Virus record (IMG/VR): IMGVR_UViG_3300025322_000026
Span: 1 to 54,461 of that record
DNA length: 54,461 bases
Source: a virus
Lineage: Duplodnaviria > Caudoviricetes
Strand: one strand, 5' to 3'
The notes beneath the pieces were generated by a model. That model saw only the letters and a list, made by a program, of their open reading frames with translations. It was not told the DNA's origin and did not search any database. Positions 5,077 through 41,952 of the stretch are shown in pieces. The position numbers and the translations under genes are program-made. Position 1 is the stretch's first letter, and each line of letters opens with the position of its first letter.

Positions 5077-5606
5077 TCCATAGTACAATTAAAGTCGTCA
5101 GGACAATAGGGATCCTGACGACCTTCTATCAACACCGGAATGGAGGTTCCGATGCTCCCACAGTCTACCACAAAACGTTTCTGGTCCCTCGTTGATAAAT
5201 CTCCGAATGAAAAAAGATGTTGGATCTGGAAAGGCTATACCAATGTCAATGGCTATGGTGGATTCGGTCATTCTAGCAAATTGTTCCGAGCGCATCGGAT
5301 CGCGTGGGAACTCGTGAACGGCCCTATTCCCCAGGGCGTCCATGTTCTCCATCATTGCGACAATCCACCCTGTGTCAATCCAGACCATCTGTTTCTTGGA
5401 ACCCAAGCCGACAACAATCGTGATATGAGTAGAAAGCTCAGAAATGCAGCTAGAAAGCTGTCGCCATGTGAAGTTCTGGAGATCAGAGATCGATACAAAC
5501 CTGGAGAGATCCGCTTGGTTGATCTCGCAGAAGAATATAATGTGACATTTGGATTAATCGCAAAAATTATCCATCGTGTTATCTGGAAACACATCTAGGT
5601 TAGTCC
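5077..5606 (+). mobile_element. Antisense HNH cassette 1, inserted in the endolysin
   Basis: TCCA at 5077, TACAAT at 5084, hairpin 5094-5122, HNH gene, TCCT at 5604; removing 5077-5603 fuses the GH25 and M23 frames. Confidence 0.75.
5152..5598 (+). CDS. HNH homing endonuclease with C-terminal HTH-like domain
   Basis: RFWSLVDK..CWIWKG..AHRIAW..VLHHCDNPPCVNPDHL..DN; GGAGG RBS before ATG 5152. Confidence 0.92.
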   Translation: MLPQSTTKRFWSLVDKSPNEKRCWIWKGYTNVNGYGGFGHSSKLFRAHRIAWELVNGPIPQGVHVLHHCDNPPCVNPDHLFLGTQADNNRDMSRKLRNAARKLSPCEVLEIRDRYKPGEIRLVDLAEEYNVTFGLIAKIIHRVIWKHI

Positions 5607-6143
5607 TACCCACGCAACATTCCAACTCGAAGTTTGTTGCCAGCATATGATCTCGGGACTATATCCCTTGAGTGGAGTAGGCCCAGTATCATTATAACCA
5701 ACTAGCCAATGTGGCTTAGCCTGTATCCATGCTGGGACAGATATTCCATTCAGAAACCATGCACCAGAATAGATCATCATTTCTCTTCCATCGAATTGTT
5801 CAATCGCCGTGACCATGGCATACAATTGATTCCAGTCTACAGGATTCTTCTCCAGGTCTAGCGCAGGCATAAGTTCGCCACGATCATTTGCCGGCATTGA
5901 ATCGCAATAGGTTCTGGACTGATTGATGCCTGTCACACCTGGTTGATAAACCATGTATCCTAGCCGTAGTATTTTTTCTGTCTTTGCCTCAGACCATAGA
6001 ACCTCGAAATCTGGATCTGGCCATATACCTTGACCAACCCGAATCGCCGCGAACTCGACATGAGCCTCGCGCGCGCCCACGAAGTCCACTCCTTCTTGTG
6101 GAAATCCGCAGTCAATCCCGAGGGGATAATCAGCAGAGACCAT
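5595..6143 (-). CDS. GH25 muramidase, N-terminal piece of the split endolysin
   Basis: GIDC, AAIRVGQG, GYMVY, PALDLE (DxE), MIYSG, WQQTS; final DxD strand missing; start uncertain (6143 vs 6209). Confidence 0.85.
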   Translation of the reverse strand: MVSADYPLGIDCGFPQEGVDFVGAREAHVEFAAIRVGQGIWPDPDFEVLWSEAKTEKILRLGYMVYQPGVTGINQSRTYCDSMPANDRGELMPALDLEKNPVDWNQLYAMVTAIEQFDGREMMIYSGAWFLNGISVPAWIQAKPHWLVGYNDTGPTPLKGYSPEIICWQQTSSWNVAWVGLT

Positions 6144-6774
6144 AGAGGGAGAACCGAGATCCAGCGTAGAATCCGCCGCCGCCGCCGGGAATGTAGTCGT
6201 AGACATCAATCTGAGTTAAAGAATCCATATCGTTCCATACACCCCATTCATGCTCGACCATCCACAAACTTGGTGCTTCGCCTTCACCGAACACTCTGAT
6301 CGGCATATGGCTTAACATAGTCTTGTTCTTATCGGAGGAGGCATAGTCTCCGAAGAAAATGTATCCGACCCCAAATTCTCCCTCCATCGTTCCGCCAGCG
6401 CGTATCGATGTATTCGGTTCTCCCCCATAACCCCGAGCGAAATAGCTGGCTTGGTAGGCTGGCGATCCTGAATCGGCAAGCCCATGCCGTGCTCCACCCC
6501 AGTCATAGTTGGCACCGCTATCACCATTGAAGCGGAGATAAACTGGCACTCCATCGCTTTGGAAATTTAGGACGAGCATGAGATGGCGATAGGTCTGGGG
6601 AATGGCCGCGAAGGTAACAGGACTTGTGACCGCGTCGAGAAGGATGTCCTCAATGAGGGTAAAGCATCCAAAACCAACCGTCGAGAACTCTAGGGTCTCA
6701 AGCCTCTTAACGCGGGTTTCGTGATCCGCGATCCTTCGAGCAAGATCGCCCATGGCCTGCTCAATTGAAGGCAC
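6130..6774 (-). CDS. Small tail-tip/fibre-like protein
   Basis: N-terminal coiled coil (RVKRLETLE), VTFAAIPQTYRHL..LRFNGDSGANY..GSRFSLYG module typical of phage minor tail proteins; follows Tal. Confidence 0.65.
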   Translation of the reverse strand: MPSIEQAMGDLARRIADHETRVKRLETLEFSTVGFGCFTLIEDILLDAVTSPVTFAAIPQTYRHLMLVLNFQSDGVPVYLRFNGDSGANYDWGGARHGLADSGSPAYQASYFARGYGGEPNTSIRAGGTMEGEFGVGYIFFGDYASSDKNKTMLSHMPIRVFGEGEAPSLWMVEHEWGVWNDMDSLTQIDVYDYIPGGGGGFYAGSRFSLYGLC

Positions 6775-40393: not shown

Positions 40394-40406
40394 TTTGTGC
40401 TCCTAT

Positions 40407-40974
40407 TCCATTGTTCTTGAAGAGGTTATAATACATTCGGAGGTCCCTATGCTTTGCGAATGTGGATGCGGTCAAGAAGTGCTTCCAGGAAAGGCTACGC
40501 TCTGGCGGATGGCCCATGGACAACAGGGAGCATTCGTCCGAGGCCACCAATCTCGGGGCAATAGGAATGCACGGTGGAAGGGCGGTCGAGTGCAATCCCA
40601 GAATGGATATATCTATATCCTTATGCCAGATCATCCCAATGCACTCAAACGAGGATTTCCTGGCTATGTGGCTGAACATAGATTTGTGATGAGTGAACAT
40701 CTAGGCCGACCTCTCAAAGATGGAGAACTTGTTCACCATATGAACGGCGAAAAGATGGACAACCGTATTGAAAATCTGGTTCTGATCACTAGAACTGATC
40801 ATGCAAGTCTCCATACATCAGGACCGAAGAATGGGAATTGGACCGGCGGACGGCATGCCTTCACCTGTAATACTTGTGGTCGTGAATTTCTTCCTCGGGA
40901 TCGGCGGAATGATTATGGAGTGAACTTCTGTTCCCGACAATGCTACTATCATCGCAATCGTCATTAAGCCATCC
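40407..40974 (+). mobile_element. Antisense HNH cassette 3, intergenic
   Basis: TCCA 40407, TATAAT 40427, GGAGG, HNH gene, TCCT 40972 abutting the upstream gene's stop. Confidence 0.7.
40449..40967 (+). CDS. HNH endonuclease with CECGCG N-terminus and C-terminal Zn finger
   Basis: EHRFVM..VHHMNGEKMDNRIENL; CNTC..FCSRQC. Confidence 0.92.
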   Translation: MLCECGCGQEVLPGKATLWRMAHGQQGAFVRGHQSRGNRNARWKGGRVQSQNGYIYILMPDHPNALKRGFPGYVAEHRFVMSEHLGRPLKDGELVHHMNGEKMDNRIENLVLITRTDHASLHTSGPKNGNWTGGRHAFTCNTCGREFLPRDRRNDYGVNFCSRQCYYHRNRH

Positions 40975-41952
40975 TCACGTCGGCCATTCGCCAGTCTCAT
41001 GCCCATGAATCTCAGCGTACTCATGCCAAGATTCAAGGACTTCATCCACGGTGTACTTCGCTGTCGTCTGAATATGGTCCCGATCAGCCTGCGCTGCGGC
41101 CACTGCGGAGTCTCTAGTTTCGTTCAATGTCTTCAACCAATCCGCGTGGTTCTTACATTTTTCGTAATAGCCAGCATAGAGCATATCAAGATACTTCTGG
41201 CCACCCAATGAATAGGCGGTGATCATGAAGTTGCGCCACATATCTGTTTGGAACCAATGGTATCCCCGCTTCCGCGCCGCGAGGTGGTAGTATTGCATCT
41301 CAGGGTGCGACTTCACCTGATAGCCATACATCTGCGCCTTGATGTCCGTATAGGGTTCGCCGCCTCCATAGATCCCTAGCGCGGGATGGTAGCCGTCGAT
41401 CTCATCCCAGACATTCTTGTCGATCAGGATGTTAGCGCCCCCATTCATCAAGATGCGGTAGTCAGGCGGCTTCGGCGGGATTCTCGTCCAGCTCCCCCAG
41501 AACATATCCCGCTTCCACCGATAGCCGTACACGGTCCTTCCGGGCTTGTCGAGGAAGTACCGCAACCCGAGGTGCATCACGCCCTCGAAGGACTGCTTGA
41601 ACGCCAACGCGGCCCGATACGCTCCAGGAACCGGCATCGTGTGAGCATCCAGGAACCAGAGATATTTCCCGCTCGCCTGCTGTGCGCCGAAGTTCCGTGA
41701 CTTGTAGATACTCCCCTCGGCCAGATGATGACGATGGTAGTAGCCAGCCCCATGCGGCCATTTCTGGTCAAGCCAGTGATAGACATGCTGATCATCCTCG
41801 CGCTCGGCCTCTTCGCCGTTCGTGACGATGATGTACTCCCGAACGAAGCCTGGATCCGTGCCGCGCGGACCTAGCTCCTCCTCAAGTGCCTGGAGCGTCC
41901 AGACCAGATTGTGCGGTTCACCCCGCTCTGAGATTATGATGCTGACGAACAT
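40975..41952 (-). CDS. GT-A glycosyltransferase with polypeptide GalNAc-transferase-like motifs
   Basis: SRNFGAQQASGKYLWFLDAH (DxH), GG..LID, GIYGGGE, YYH. Confidence 0.8.
   Translation of the reverse strand: MFVSIIISERGEPHNLVWTLQALEEELGPRGTDPGFVREYIIVTNGEEAEREDDQHVYHWLDQKWPHGAGYYHRHHLAEGSIYKSRNFGAQQASGKYLWFLDAHTMPVPGAYRAALAFKQSFEGVMHLGLRYFLDKPGRTVYGYRWKRDMFWGSWTRIPPKPPDYRILMNGGANILIDKNVWDEIDGYHPALGIYGGGEPYTDIKAQMYGYQVKSHPEMQYYHLAARKRGYHWFQTDMWRNFMITAYSLGGQKYLDMLYAGYYEKCKNHADWLKTLNETRDSAVAAAQADRDHIQTTAKYTVDEVLESWHEYAEIHGHETGEWPT

Follow-up and report, generated by a model that had tools for sequence, protein, structure and literature searches.

Homing endonuclease genes (HEGs) have been described as insertions that split phage genes, with mobE and nrdA in Aeh1, mobA and gene 60-39, and a seg gene in gene 43 of phage 25 as examples (PMC2988022), and the same source presents co-conversion of HEG flanks in phages as known and takes up how HEGs obtain a promoter. 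HEGs have also been placed at boundaries of genetic exchange (PMC10448857). Within T4, segD is given as the sole antisense HEG, for which a promoter was not found in the work covered by that account (PMC2988022). Among staphylococcal endolysins, both HNH-disrupted (Sb-1 lineage) and intron-split (lysK) forms have been reported (PMC13729910).

Here, we analyzed a 54,461-nt stretch of viral DNA (the window) in which three HNH genes run antisense to the late - strand operon of what appears to be a siphovirus-like soil phage. We interpret them as three independent, ordinary free-standing HEGs transcribed from their own sigma-70-type promoters, a reading to which we assign a probability of about 0.7 and in which homing is predicted from sequence. 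Each gene and its flanks, as far as the short TCCA and TCCT motifs discussed below, is called a cassette. The HNH genes and their upstream signals are the following:

5152..5598, + strand: HNH1, free-standing HNH_3 gene, 148 aa (Pfam HNH_3 E 5.2e-16; Shine-Dalgarno (SD) GGAGG at 5143-5147)
29021..29512, + strand: HNH2, free-standing HNH_3 gene, 163 aa (Pfam HNH_3 E 4.1e-13; phrog_59 E 6.4e-35)
40449..40967, + strand: HNH3, free-standing HNH_3 gene, 172 aa (Pfam HNH_3 E 4.7e-12; phrog_20891 E 1.3e-24)
5061..5089, + strand: HNH1 promoter-like site CTGGCA-17-TACAAT (9/12 match)
5091..5125, unstranded: 5'-terminal hairpin of the HNH1 leader (13-nt arms 5091-5103/5113-5125, 92% complementary)
28985..29014, + strand: HNH2 promoter-like site CTGGCA-18-TG-TATAAT (10/12 plus TG)
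40427..40432, + strand: HNH3 -10 box TATAAT (sequence scan)

A preliminary description of the window had named these as the sole + strand genes of the structural region; this held in a codon model, where the other + strand ORFs at 5-41 kb scored below their - strand alternatives. All three are stand-alone small ORFs with an HNH-type domain, as HEGs are, and matched Pfam HNH_3 (E 5e-16, 4e-13 and 5e-12; 58.5, 49.2 and 45.8 bits for HNH1, HNH2 and HNH3, respectively, vs. a cut-off of 24.8). HNH1 further matched HNH endonuclease families in PHROG (lowest E 2.6e-30), and the C-terminal region of HNH2 is HTH-like, with weak Pfam HTH matches. The nucleases had been assigned to different HNH subtypes, which stood in part: the shared HNH_3 domain and the distant paralogy of HNH1 and HNH2, which are built alike (26% identity across 118 aa; E 2e-9), speak against it, while HNH3 is indeed built differently. 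HNH3 is Cys-rich at both ends and has an SD GGAGG at 40442-40446. The composition of the three genes is foreign (GC3 0.40-0.52 vs. 0.6-0.7 in their neighbours), with a GC3 of 0.40 for HNH3, and a GC of 0.46 and GC3 of 0.45 for HNH1 vs. approximately 0.54-0.59 in its flanks. The 90% cluster of HNH1 had three members among the matches listed, present on 11, 2 and 1 contigs.

As previously described, a -10 box precedes each gene, TACAAT at 5084 and TATAAT at 29009 and 40427. These promoters look real, being beyond chance for the -10 boxes: TATAAT occurs three times on the + strand in 54 kb, twice upstream of HNH genes, and the whole + strand holds ten sigma-70-like sites (at least 9/12), two of which are found no more than 150 nt from a start, one at HNH1 and one at HNH2, the HNH2 site being the top-scoring one in the window. 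No -35 element passing the sigma-70 scan was found upstream of the TATAAT at 40427. The HNH2 mRNA is probably leaderless, since ATG 29021 lies only 6 nt past the -10 box; in the HNH1 leader region, 5068-5165 folds at -27.5 kcal/mol (z -2.76).

A record of an insertion was found at cassette 1, where two - strand ORFs correspond to the halves of one endolysin:

5595..6200, - strand: GH25 muramidase ORF, N-terminal half of the split endolysin (Pfam GH25 E 7.7e-13)
4240..5067, - strand: M23 peptidase plus SH3 ORF, C-terminal half (Peptidase_M23 E 1.5e-21; SH3_3 E 1.4e-5)
5598..6020, - strand: divergent low-GC tract, GH25 aa 61-201, adjoining HNH1 (from identity and GC)

Uninterrupted relatives encode a single GH25-M23-SH3 protein of 447-478 aa that reads ...WVG-RKD(G/R)R-IDRDYW.... 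Of the 18 members of the cluster 15 were listed, and these include seven distinct sequences of this kind, spread over 8 contigs. Split-type forms of 254 and 275 aa, both recorded for the M23 half, were found on 10 contigs among the members listed, in the same 90% cluster as the uninterrupted lysins, so that HNH1 is present in some close relatives and missing from others. At the same place the window reads ...WVG-LT*, then HNH1, then ...G-TKIMPGK-IDRDYW, with the GH25 and HNH1 stops overlapping in CTAG. The GH25 ORF shares 70% identity with the N-terminal half of an uninterrupted lysin (P0123); for the M23-SH3 half, identity with the C-terminal part of the uninterrupted alleles is 90-92%. Because distant relatives have single open frames of 515 and 521 aa that include the M23-SH3 part, the fused endolysin is ancestral. 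Judging from these alleles, the insertion of HNH1 split one endolysin gene into two genes.

The boundaries of cassette 1 come from protein alignments with alleles that are only 70% identical in the GH25 half. On the right, homology to the uninterrupted alleles (...WVG) stops within a codon of GTA GGA (Val-Gly), where it had been expected to stop; on the left, the boundary lies anywhere in 5058-5076. Removal of 5077-5603 would join the two ORFs in frame as V-G-T-K, and the empty site so predicted (V-G/T-K) resembles the real V-G-R-K. The match and the in-frame GGA pair are in line with the interpretation offered in the preliminary description, a minimal cassette class with AGGA recognition, a 3-nt GGA duplication and perhaps precise excision, as are the literal TCCA...TCCT ends of all three cassettes. 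However, the cassette 1 GGAs are in-frame Gly codons in the interdomain linker of an endolysin ORF, where the interpretation had RBS-like sites targeted. The precise TCCA...TCCT limits did not hold here either, as the imported DNA outruns the cassette by approximately 420 nt past TCCT. Within GH25, aa 61-201 are 40-79% identical to P0133/P0128, vs. 85-100% for aa 1-60, and across the M23 half identity to the same two alleles is 80-100%. This tract of approximately 420 nt has a GC of 0.46 and a GC3 of 0.40 (0.54-0.68 elsewhere), and one low-GC island spans HNH1 and GH25 aa 61-201, the divergence being one-sided. The tract was presumably imported together with HNH1 in a co-conversion-like event, as in the exchange tracts that flank HEGs, which points to homing with co-conversion and not to precise cut-and-paste.

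The first codons of the M23 half, ATG CCA (M-P), are not in the uninterrupted alleles; hence, this start codon arose with the insertion of cassette 1 or later. ATG 5067 has a weak GGA SD 9 nt upstream, and a second ATG at 5004 has a GGAGG SD; translation of the M23 half probably begins at one or the other.

We also considered whether cassette 1 is an intron, or a gap bypassed from GGA to GGA as in T4 gene 60, with full-length lysin still being made. The insert has matched in-frame GGA codons (5606-5604 and 5079-5077), a stop two codons past the first and a linked HEG, which mirrors, as a resemblance only, the mobA/gene 60 arrangement (10.1101/2022.08.31.505936), and the intron-split lysK offers a precedent (PMC13729910). 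Against this, Rfam gave no hits at the gathering threshold and, at E up to 5 on both strands, just chance-level snoRNA, miRNA and sRNA matches and no intron. Unlike T4 gene 60, cassette 1 has no take-off stem-loop, adjacent stop or mini-SD, and its gap is 524 nt vs. 50 nt (10.1101/2022.08.31.505936): the take-off GGA is in a loop where a 5' stem arm would be required, two sense codons separate it from the stop, no mini-SD is present 5-7 nt ahead of the landing codon (preceded by TAATTGTACTAT), and 13 GGA and 7 GGG triplets in the gap would allow premature landing. We regard this reading of cassette 1 as largely refuted, with a probability close to negligible. A group I or II intron-borne HEG was rejected separately, as the ribozyme core is absent by Rfam and the antisense ORF fills 447 nt of the 524-nt gap; the non-ORF sequence of cassette 1 amounts to 72 + 5 nt. 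The suggested removal at the DNA or RNA level thus failed on three counts, namely no intron-like RNA on either strand, no bypass features and no terminal inverted or direct repeats of at least 9 nt at the cassette ends.

Cassette 2 interrupts the junction upstream of a protease gene, with these features:

26970..28991, - strand: prohead protease/scaffold-type gene, 673 aa (homologs carry PF04586, PF10123 and PF05065)
29623..29904, - strand: 93-aa gene upstream of cassette 2 (41-57% identity in L053-L056; - frame favoured)
29553..29576, - strand: intrinsic terminator downstream of the 93-aa gene (9 pairs, 8 of them GC; tail TTGCTTTTCG)
29538..29542, - strand: GAGGA, alternative right junction of cassette 2, directly after the T-run

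In relatives, the 93-aa gene immediately precedes the protease gene. Three syntenic loci (L053-L055) have the order 152-aa, 170-aa, 93-aa, protease, 477-aa and 236-aa gene without an HNH gene, a fourth (L056) has the 93-aa to protease junction without one, and tblastn with HNH2 gave zero matches in the syntenic loci L053-L057. The empty junctions consist of terminator, T-run, SD and start. HNH2 is thus missing from the syntenic junction in four relatives, albeit distant ones (43-60% identical), and by this comparison cassette 2 is an insertion. Together with the absence of cassette 1 from near-identical relatives, this bears out, for HNH1 and HNH2, the earlier view of the HNH genes as insertions. 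An exchange tract may be recorded here too, as the protease diverges over its first ~50 aa in a near relative (P0117), with identities of 52% for aa 1-25 and 72% for aa 26-50 vs. 92% overall.

The right end of cassette 2 offers two candidate GGA sites. The terminator hairpin and the T-run that follows it (29552-29543) are both kept in L053-L055, and the GAGGA at 29538-29542 sits where relatives carry the protease SD, 16 nt outside the boundary originally drawn at AGGA 29519-29522; past the hairpin the alignment is ambiguous. This second junction counts against precise boundaries. It also counts against the proposed cassette class, as does the lack of any transposase or recombinase by Pfam and PHROG, with the HNH the sole ORF with a family match in each cassette. 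An IS-like transposon with target duplication was discarded for the same lack of transposase and of repeats of at least 9 nt, the GGA match being merely 3 nt and ambiguous at cassette 2. Further, since HNH1 and HNH2 share a build that HNH3 lacks, a common target specificity is unlikely. We therefore consider the AGGA-recognizing cassette class very improbable; the observation behind it was confirmed in part and its interpretation supported in part, and the proposed new class of mobile element was not supported by what was testable.

Cassette 3 occupies the junction between two - strand genes:

40975..41952, - strand: GT2-type glycosyltransferase gene, 325 aa (stop TGA 40977-40975 overlaps TCCT)
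39074..40393, - strand: 439-aa gene downstream of cassette 3 (SD AGGAG 40405-40401, 6 nt before ATG)

All seven full-length GT2 variants fetched are 325 aa long and end ...GEW(P/A/H)T; C-terminal variation next to the cassette is mild. The 439-aa gene had zero Pfam or PHROG matches. Its functional-looking SD, AGGAG at 40401-40405, is separate from the TCCA site at 40407, and there is no overlap between a -35 element and the start codon.

The end motifs themselves were largely as first described. TCCA is present at 5077, 29001 and 40407, the downstream - strand ORFs all start ATGCC (5067, 28991 and 40393), and in cassettes 1 and 2 the distance from GGA to the ATG is exactly 9 nt; TCCT is found at 5604, 29519 and 40972, the spacing past the stops being 6, 7 and 5 nt and not 4-6 nt. 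The left ends of cassettes 1 and 2 are collinear (CTGGCAT, 9 nt, TCCA, 3-4 nt, TAYAAT), and the M23 ORF opens with ATGCCAG, whose reverse complement is the HNH1 -35 hexamer with one T added. The left TCC(A) is expected, as it is the GGA SD core of the downstream gene, and is not surprising because, in a crude set of 60 - strand gene calls, 44 carry GGA at -16..-4. Sharing of TCCT on the right is borderline beyond chance: a 4-mer common to three random windows of 10, 12 or 15 nt has P = 0.008, 0.018 or 0.035, and in a gapped test over 8 columns P was 0.26 at the right ends and 0.08 at the left. TCCAWWGT, with 13 copies on the + and 4 on the - strand, is not confined to the HNH genes. In a small survey of TCC within 12 nt past the stop, none of six antisense HNH1 homologs on other viral contigs had it, vs. 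0.8 expected, which weakens both the proposed TCC enrichment at antisense HNH ends and the cassette class built on it. Nor is ATG-CC a cassette signature at the protease gene, where MP is an ancestral N-terminus common to the family, seen in 12 of 17 homologs picked by hand.

These data bear on whether the geometry arose from selection rather than from insertion chemistry. HEGs would then insert almost anywhere, and antisense inserts bearing a promoter would be kept in a tightly coupled operon only if a GGA SD lay ~9 nt before a start at their left end and their right end abutted a GGA stretch. The identical TGGA-N9-ATGCCAG geometry of cassettes 1 and 2, the start codon gained in cassette 1, the overlap of both -35 hexamers with start codons and the right-end P values of 0.008-0.035 fit such a filter. 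However, it rests on three cases, in one of which (cassette 3) the SD is stronger and different (AGGAG, 6 nt) and free of -35 overlap; the protease MP start is ancestral, the M23 half has a strong alternative start at 5004 with its GGAGG, and the 0/6 survey result also counts against the filter. On balance we hold it to be unlikely. Selection of this kind also overlaps with the reading of the three genes as ordinary HEGs. That the common geometry is functional, with antisense HNH_3 cassettes acting as compact bidirectional control regions and insertion favoured at GGA microhomology, is distinctly unlikely in our view. If true, the -35 CTGGCA, as reverse complement of the first codons ATGCCAG, and the GGA SD in the spacer 9 nt from ATG would work together, and cassettes that make or acquire this layout could split an ORF without silencing its distal half, a 'gene-splitting-competent' HEG design.

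In the preferred reading, that of three ordinary HEGs, the cassettes would have arrived by repair of a double-strand break or by recombination with a donor carrying a HEG, flanking DNA being carried along, and no precise cut-and-paste duplicating GGA would be involved. The data show that the genes are HNHs, that cassettes 1 and 2 are insertions, that the lysin is split and that a divergent low-GC tract adjoins HNH1, and they show the promoters by statistics; we infer homing activity, the direction of transfer, the donor and the start codon used by the M23 half. Cassette 1 would have entered the GH25-M23-SH3 linker and produced two 'genes in pieces': a GH25 half that terminates two codons inside the insert and an M23-SH3 half that restarts at ATG 5067 or 5004. 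Cassette 2 separates the prohead protease gene from the conserved terminator/SD region. The left TCC position would be fixed in cassettes 1 and 2 by confinement of the SD to the promoter spacer, where it must fall because the -35 CTGGCA overlaps the downstream start codon. The right TCCT would be native flank on a GGA-rich strand: in cassette 1 it belongs to a Gly codon, in cassette 2 to an SD-like stretch, and in cassette 3 to the TGA-GGA of a stop codon. An insertion-site preference or microhomology at GGA may also have played a part, since both cassette 1 GGAs are in frame and HNH1 and HNH2 are distantly paralogous.

The splitting of a gene by a HEG is already known, and the window adds a further case, with a split endolysin. 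Selfish nuclease genes here reshape the late operon of a phage in nature, intact and split endolysin alleles co-occur in public metagenomes, and the locus offers a clean natural case of sequence exchange ending at a homing endonuclease gene. For annotation, lysin 'fragments' on either side of an HNH gene are best treated as one interrupted gene.

Compared with the known systems, the genes resemble the T4 mob and ICP1 HNH_3 HEGs in being small HNH_3 ORFs with presence/absence polymorphism, and in their sites between or within conserved essential genes with divergent flanks (PMC2988022, PMC10448857). Unlike the T4 mob genes, all three HNHs are antisense, with their own sigma-70-like promoters, and their activity is predicted. 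Like the staphylococcal endolysins (lysK, with a group I intron and I-KsaI, and the Sb-1 lineage), an HNH element interrupts an endolysin (PMC13729910); in contrast to these, no intron was detected in the window, host and phage lineage differ, and either half carries a stop or start of its own. As for Aeh1 mobE, T4 mobA and the phage 25 seg gene, one ORF has become two polypeptides, each translated on its own, and remains contiguous in relatives (PMC2988022). Unlike in those genes in pieces, the endolysin is cut at a domain linker by an antisense HEG, and its halves are complete catalytic modules for which reassembly would not be needed.

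The IMG/VR record (54,461 bp; completeness estimate 72%) carries nearly all genes of the window on the - strand, several glycosyltransferases among them, and neither tRNAs nor Rfam families at gathering threshold were found in the window. All three + strand ORFs studied here belong to the Pfam family HNH_3; HNH1 and HNH2 are built alike and are distant paralogs (26% identity over 118 aa), and the build of HNH3 differs from theirs. That they are the only + strand genes in the structural region was borne out by a codon model, in which rival + ORFs score below the - strand alternatives. 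At the left edge of the window, outside the range of the preliminary description, a 133-aa ORF (61-462, +) scores positively in the codon model (0.110) and is possibly a genuine + strand gene. The main features are as follows.

5152-5598, + strand: HNH1 (cassette 1), between the GH25 and M23-SH3 genes
7882-10374, - strand: minor tail gene
10371-12899, - strand: tape-measure gene
26970-28991, - strand: prohead protease/scaffold-type gene
29021-29512, + strand: HNH2 (cassette 2), between the 93-aa and protease genes
40449-40967, + strand: HNH3 (cassette 3), between the GT2 and 439-aa genes

No close relatives are present among deposited phages. The sole blastn match around cassette 1 was that of the Myxococcus phage Mx9 HNH gene to HNH1 (126 nt, 73%), and blastn around cassettes 2 and 3 gave no matches to deposited phages.

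The preliminary description had proposed that the cassettes share TCCA...TCCT ends at RBS-like AGGA sites, arose by insertion with a GGA duplication and might be removable. A sequence check reproduced its motifs: TCCA at 5077, 29001 and 40407; -10 boxes at 5084 (TACAAT), 29009 and 40427 (both TATAAT); TCCT at 5604, 29519 and 40972; ATGCC starts of the downstream ORFs at 5067, 28991 and 40393; and exactly 9 nt between GGA and ATG in cassettes 1 and 2.

Cassette 1 lies between a GH25 muramidase, its right-hand neighbour ORF, and an M23 peptidase with an SH3 domain on its left. Among the 15 listed of the 18 members of the M23 protein's 90%-identity cluster, seven distinct sequences of 447-478 aa, from 8 contigs, hold both domains in one chain, and the uninterrupted allele P0123 lists PF01183 and PF01551. 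The linker of these lysins reads ...CWQQ(T/S)NAWIVKWVG-RKD(G/R)R-IDRDYWIAGRQDLW..., whereas the GH25 frame of the window ends ...WNVAWVG-LT-stop, followed by HNH1 on the opposite strand, and the M23 frame beyond HNH1 reads ...YYG-TKI-MPGK-IDRDYWIAGRQDLW.... This comparison indicates that the interdomain linker is where a formerly contiguous endolysin gene was split. Split-type forms of 254 and 275 aa were found on 10 further contigs among the members listed, so both alleles circulate; and since two more distant relatives hold the M23-SH3 part within single open frames of 515 and 521 aa, the fused lysin is taken as the ancestral state. A metagenome-contig scan by alignment of the uninterrupted lysin, using two 7-mer patterns only, returned one unrelated locus (L001, 32% identity).

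An RBS-like target is thereby contradicted at cassette 1, where the site is inside the endolysin gene and both flanking GGAs are in-frame glycine codons. The right boundary proved correct to within a codon, because deleting 5077-5603 would yield V-G-T-K, near the real V-G-R-K, and protein comparison with the uninterrupted alleles places the left boundary within 5058-5076. In place of the window's TKIMPGK, these alleles carry RKD(G/R)R, and the M-P that provides the new start codon is missing from them; it is possible that cassette 1 brought its ATG CCA start along. Within the lysin linker/M23 region, an internal ATG at 5004 (-) has a perfect GGAGG SD; as the uninterrupted alleles carry this ATG too (LWRRAMARKVV), it may be an internal lysin start independent of the HNH insertion.

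Compared with the uninterrupted alleles P0133 and P0128, the lysin showed 85-100% identity over aa 1-60, 40-79% over aa 61-200, which adjoin HNH1, and 80-100% in its M23 half, and in the divergent stretch P0133 and P0128 were 70-100% identical to each other. The divergent tract (5598-6020) has a GC of 0.46 and a GC3 of 0.40, the corresponding values for HNH1 being 0.46 and 0.45, and the flanks of the two have a GC of 0.54-0.59. Judged from these sequence comparisons, the imported segment appears to exceed the cassette itself, and the divergent low-GC tract looks like the pattern of homing with flank co-conversion, or of an exchange ending at the nuclease gene. Passages of PMC2988022 and PMC10448857 describe that homing co-converts flanking DNA and that exchange can end at nuclease genes. 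Precise cut-and-paste at TCC sites is not supported, as it would not leave such a divergent tract.

The suggested removability was followed at both levels. Rfam searches detected no intron-like RNA on either strand, which argues against RNA-level removal and led to rejection of a group I intron. Terminal inverted or direct repeats of at least 9 nt were not found at the cassette ends, nor was a transposase found in family searches, so that transposon-like ends were discarded as well. The pair of matched GGA codons is reminiscent of the bypass cassette of T4 gene 60/mobA, so the features defining gene 60 bypass, as set out in part of preprint 10.1101/2022.08.31.505936, were sought at cassette 1. 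The gap there is 524 nt, in contrast to 50 nt in T4 gene 60, and contains 13 GGA and 7 GGG triplets; an adjacent stop, a mini-SD and a proper take-off stem were looked for in cassette 1 and not found, and bypass of this type was rejected on these grounds. Further, Logan contigs of four sequencing runs (X4, X5, X6 and X8) were placed on 24000-43999, a range covering cassettes 2 and 3 only. With 0 differences, an X4 contig (27992-29395) bridges 29001, one from X5 (29239-29953) bridges 29519, and another from X5 (39698-41796) spans all of cassette 3. None of the 15 joints listed skips a cassette, although the listing left out 24 joints, 308 loose ends and 510 pieces, and such contigs drop rare variants and are uninformative on empty alleles.

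For cassette 2, a search with aligned protease homologs retrieved 53 viral loci, the closest three (L053-L055) at 43-60% identity. In these, the gene order 152-aa, 170-aa, 93-aa, protease, 477-aa (68-69% identity), 236-aa is kept, and a fourth, L056, retains the order from the 93-aa gene to the protease. No HNH2 match was found in the four loci, nor any HNH_3 gene near the protease gene in the whole records of these relatives. Their 93-aa-to-protease junction (L053-L055) consists of a stop, a hairpin terminator that recognisably resembles that of the window, a T-run, immediately an SD (AGGGAGG, AGGAGA or AGGAGT) and the start codon, 1 nt (L054), 4 nt (L055) or 6 nt (L053) away. In the window, the terminator (29576-29553) and T-run are directly followed by CGAGGA (29543-29538), then, after 16 nt, by AGGA (29522-29519) and HNH2. 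The right junction thus has two candidate GGA sites, the AGGA first proposed and CGAGGA, between which the alignment with relatives does not discriminate.

Among 17 protease homologs hand-picked from 116 hits, 12 start with MP. The ATG-CC start of this gene is thus ancestral and family-wide, and the idea that cassette 2 carries its own ATG CCA start was dropped for that reason. In P0117, a near relative, identity to the window protease is 92% overall but only 52% over aa 1-25 and 72% over aa 26-50; this makes a second divergent tract adjoining an HNH. Farther along the protease (26970-28991, -), around aa 470-545, a strongly conserved stretch (...DYLVVED..KPTTWHLQV...GAAWAALHEGYRGNKYEGP...) recurs at 60-77% identity in numerous protease, Mu-I-like and capsid-fusion proteins of phages that are otherwise unrelated, and it looks like a mobile protein module.

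At 29009-29023 (+), the HNH2 ATG lies 6 nt past the extended -10 box without an SD, so its mRNA is probably leaderless. Antisense to nearly all of HNH2 runs a 168-aa ORF (29033-29539, -; codon score 0.023, HNH2 0.004) that is probably due to chance, though late mRNA must still read through it. Promoter-like sequences were seen on the - strand within or at the 3' ends of cassette 2 (29502-29530, TTGACC-17-TATGTT) and cassette 3 (40912-40940, TTGTCG-17-CATAAT), and could drive downstream late genes, as is described for T4 HEG-embedded promoters.

At cassette 3, the GT2 stop TGA overlaps the TCCT. Full-length GT2 variants fetched were all of 325 aa (7/7), with a varying penultimate residue (P, A or H), and homologs of GT2 and the 439-aa gene were absent from the available relatives' records (G001-G004). 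The structural region also encodes a repetitive, Thr/Ser-rich 998-aa ORF without a family match (32518-35514, -); the codon model's preference for the other strand here is probably an artefact of low complexity. In contigs from four runs, this ORF has numerous alternative internal joints, which skip 69-1570 nt, and repeat length therefore appears to vary between populations. By this protein, on the same strand, are three glycosyltransferase-type genes, namely the GT domain of a 1004-aa protein (17935-20949), GT2 (40975-41952) and GT4/GT1 (43178-44440); together they may form a virion-glycosylation module. IMG/VR scans, from which near records may have been withheld, yielded 0 relatives for HNH3 and for the M23 and 998-aa proteins.

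TATAAT occurs in 3 copies on the + strand, 2 of them ahead of HNH genes. At a threshold of at least 9/12 matches, that strand has only 10 sigma-70-like sites, including those before HNH1 (CTGGCA-17-TACAAT) and HNH2 (CTGGCA-18-TG-TATAAT, the top-scoring site in the window); HNH3 has a -10 box only. The HNH promoter motifs exceed chance. The left TCC is to be expected, because the phage uses GGAG-type SDs (GGA at -16..-4 in 44/60 crude - strand gene calls). The downstream ATGCCAG of cassettes 1 and 2 gives, as its reverse complement, the -35 hexamer plus T; the downstream SD must therefore sit within the promoter spacer of 17-18 nt, and this sets the order of TCCA and then -10 without special insertion chemistry. 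The real SD at cassette 3 is elsewhere (AGGAG, 6 nt ahead of ATG). A contiguous 4-mer common to three random windows of 10-15 nt has P = 0.008-0.035, and in a gapped-block test the P values were 0.26 (right ends) and 0.08 (left ends); sharing of the right TCCT is borderline relative to chance. The extended left motif TCCAWWGT was dropped as an HNH mark, being unspecific (13 copies on +, 4 on -).

Enrichment of TCC at the ends of other antisense HNHs was surveyed at 51 HNH1-homolog loci in IMG/VR (all at most 58% identity). Of the 50 evaluable ones, 24 were sense, 6 antisense and 17 mixed, and 3 had a known strand on one side only; the counts cover the sense and antisense loci. In the 12 nt following the stop, TCC was found in 0/6 antisense homologs, with both neighbours opposite (0.8 expected), and in 3/24 sense homologs (3.0 expected). 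No enrichment is thus seen, in a small sample with neighbour strands from crude ORF calls.

We interpret the three cassettes as ordinary free-standing HNH_3 genes, predicted to encode homing endonucleases. It is unusual that all three are antisense, each with its own promoter. That GGA microhomology, or selection for a left-end SD, shapes where such cassettes persist is a residual possibility. One of the insertions appears to have made a split endolysin, a case of 'genes in pieces'; such cases are described for nrdA, topoisomerase and DNA polymerase in T4-like phages in passages of PMC2988022, and HNH-disrupted or intron-split lysins of staphylococcal phages in part of PMC13729910.
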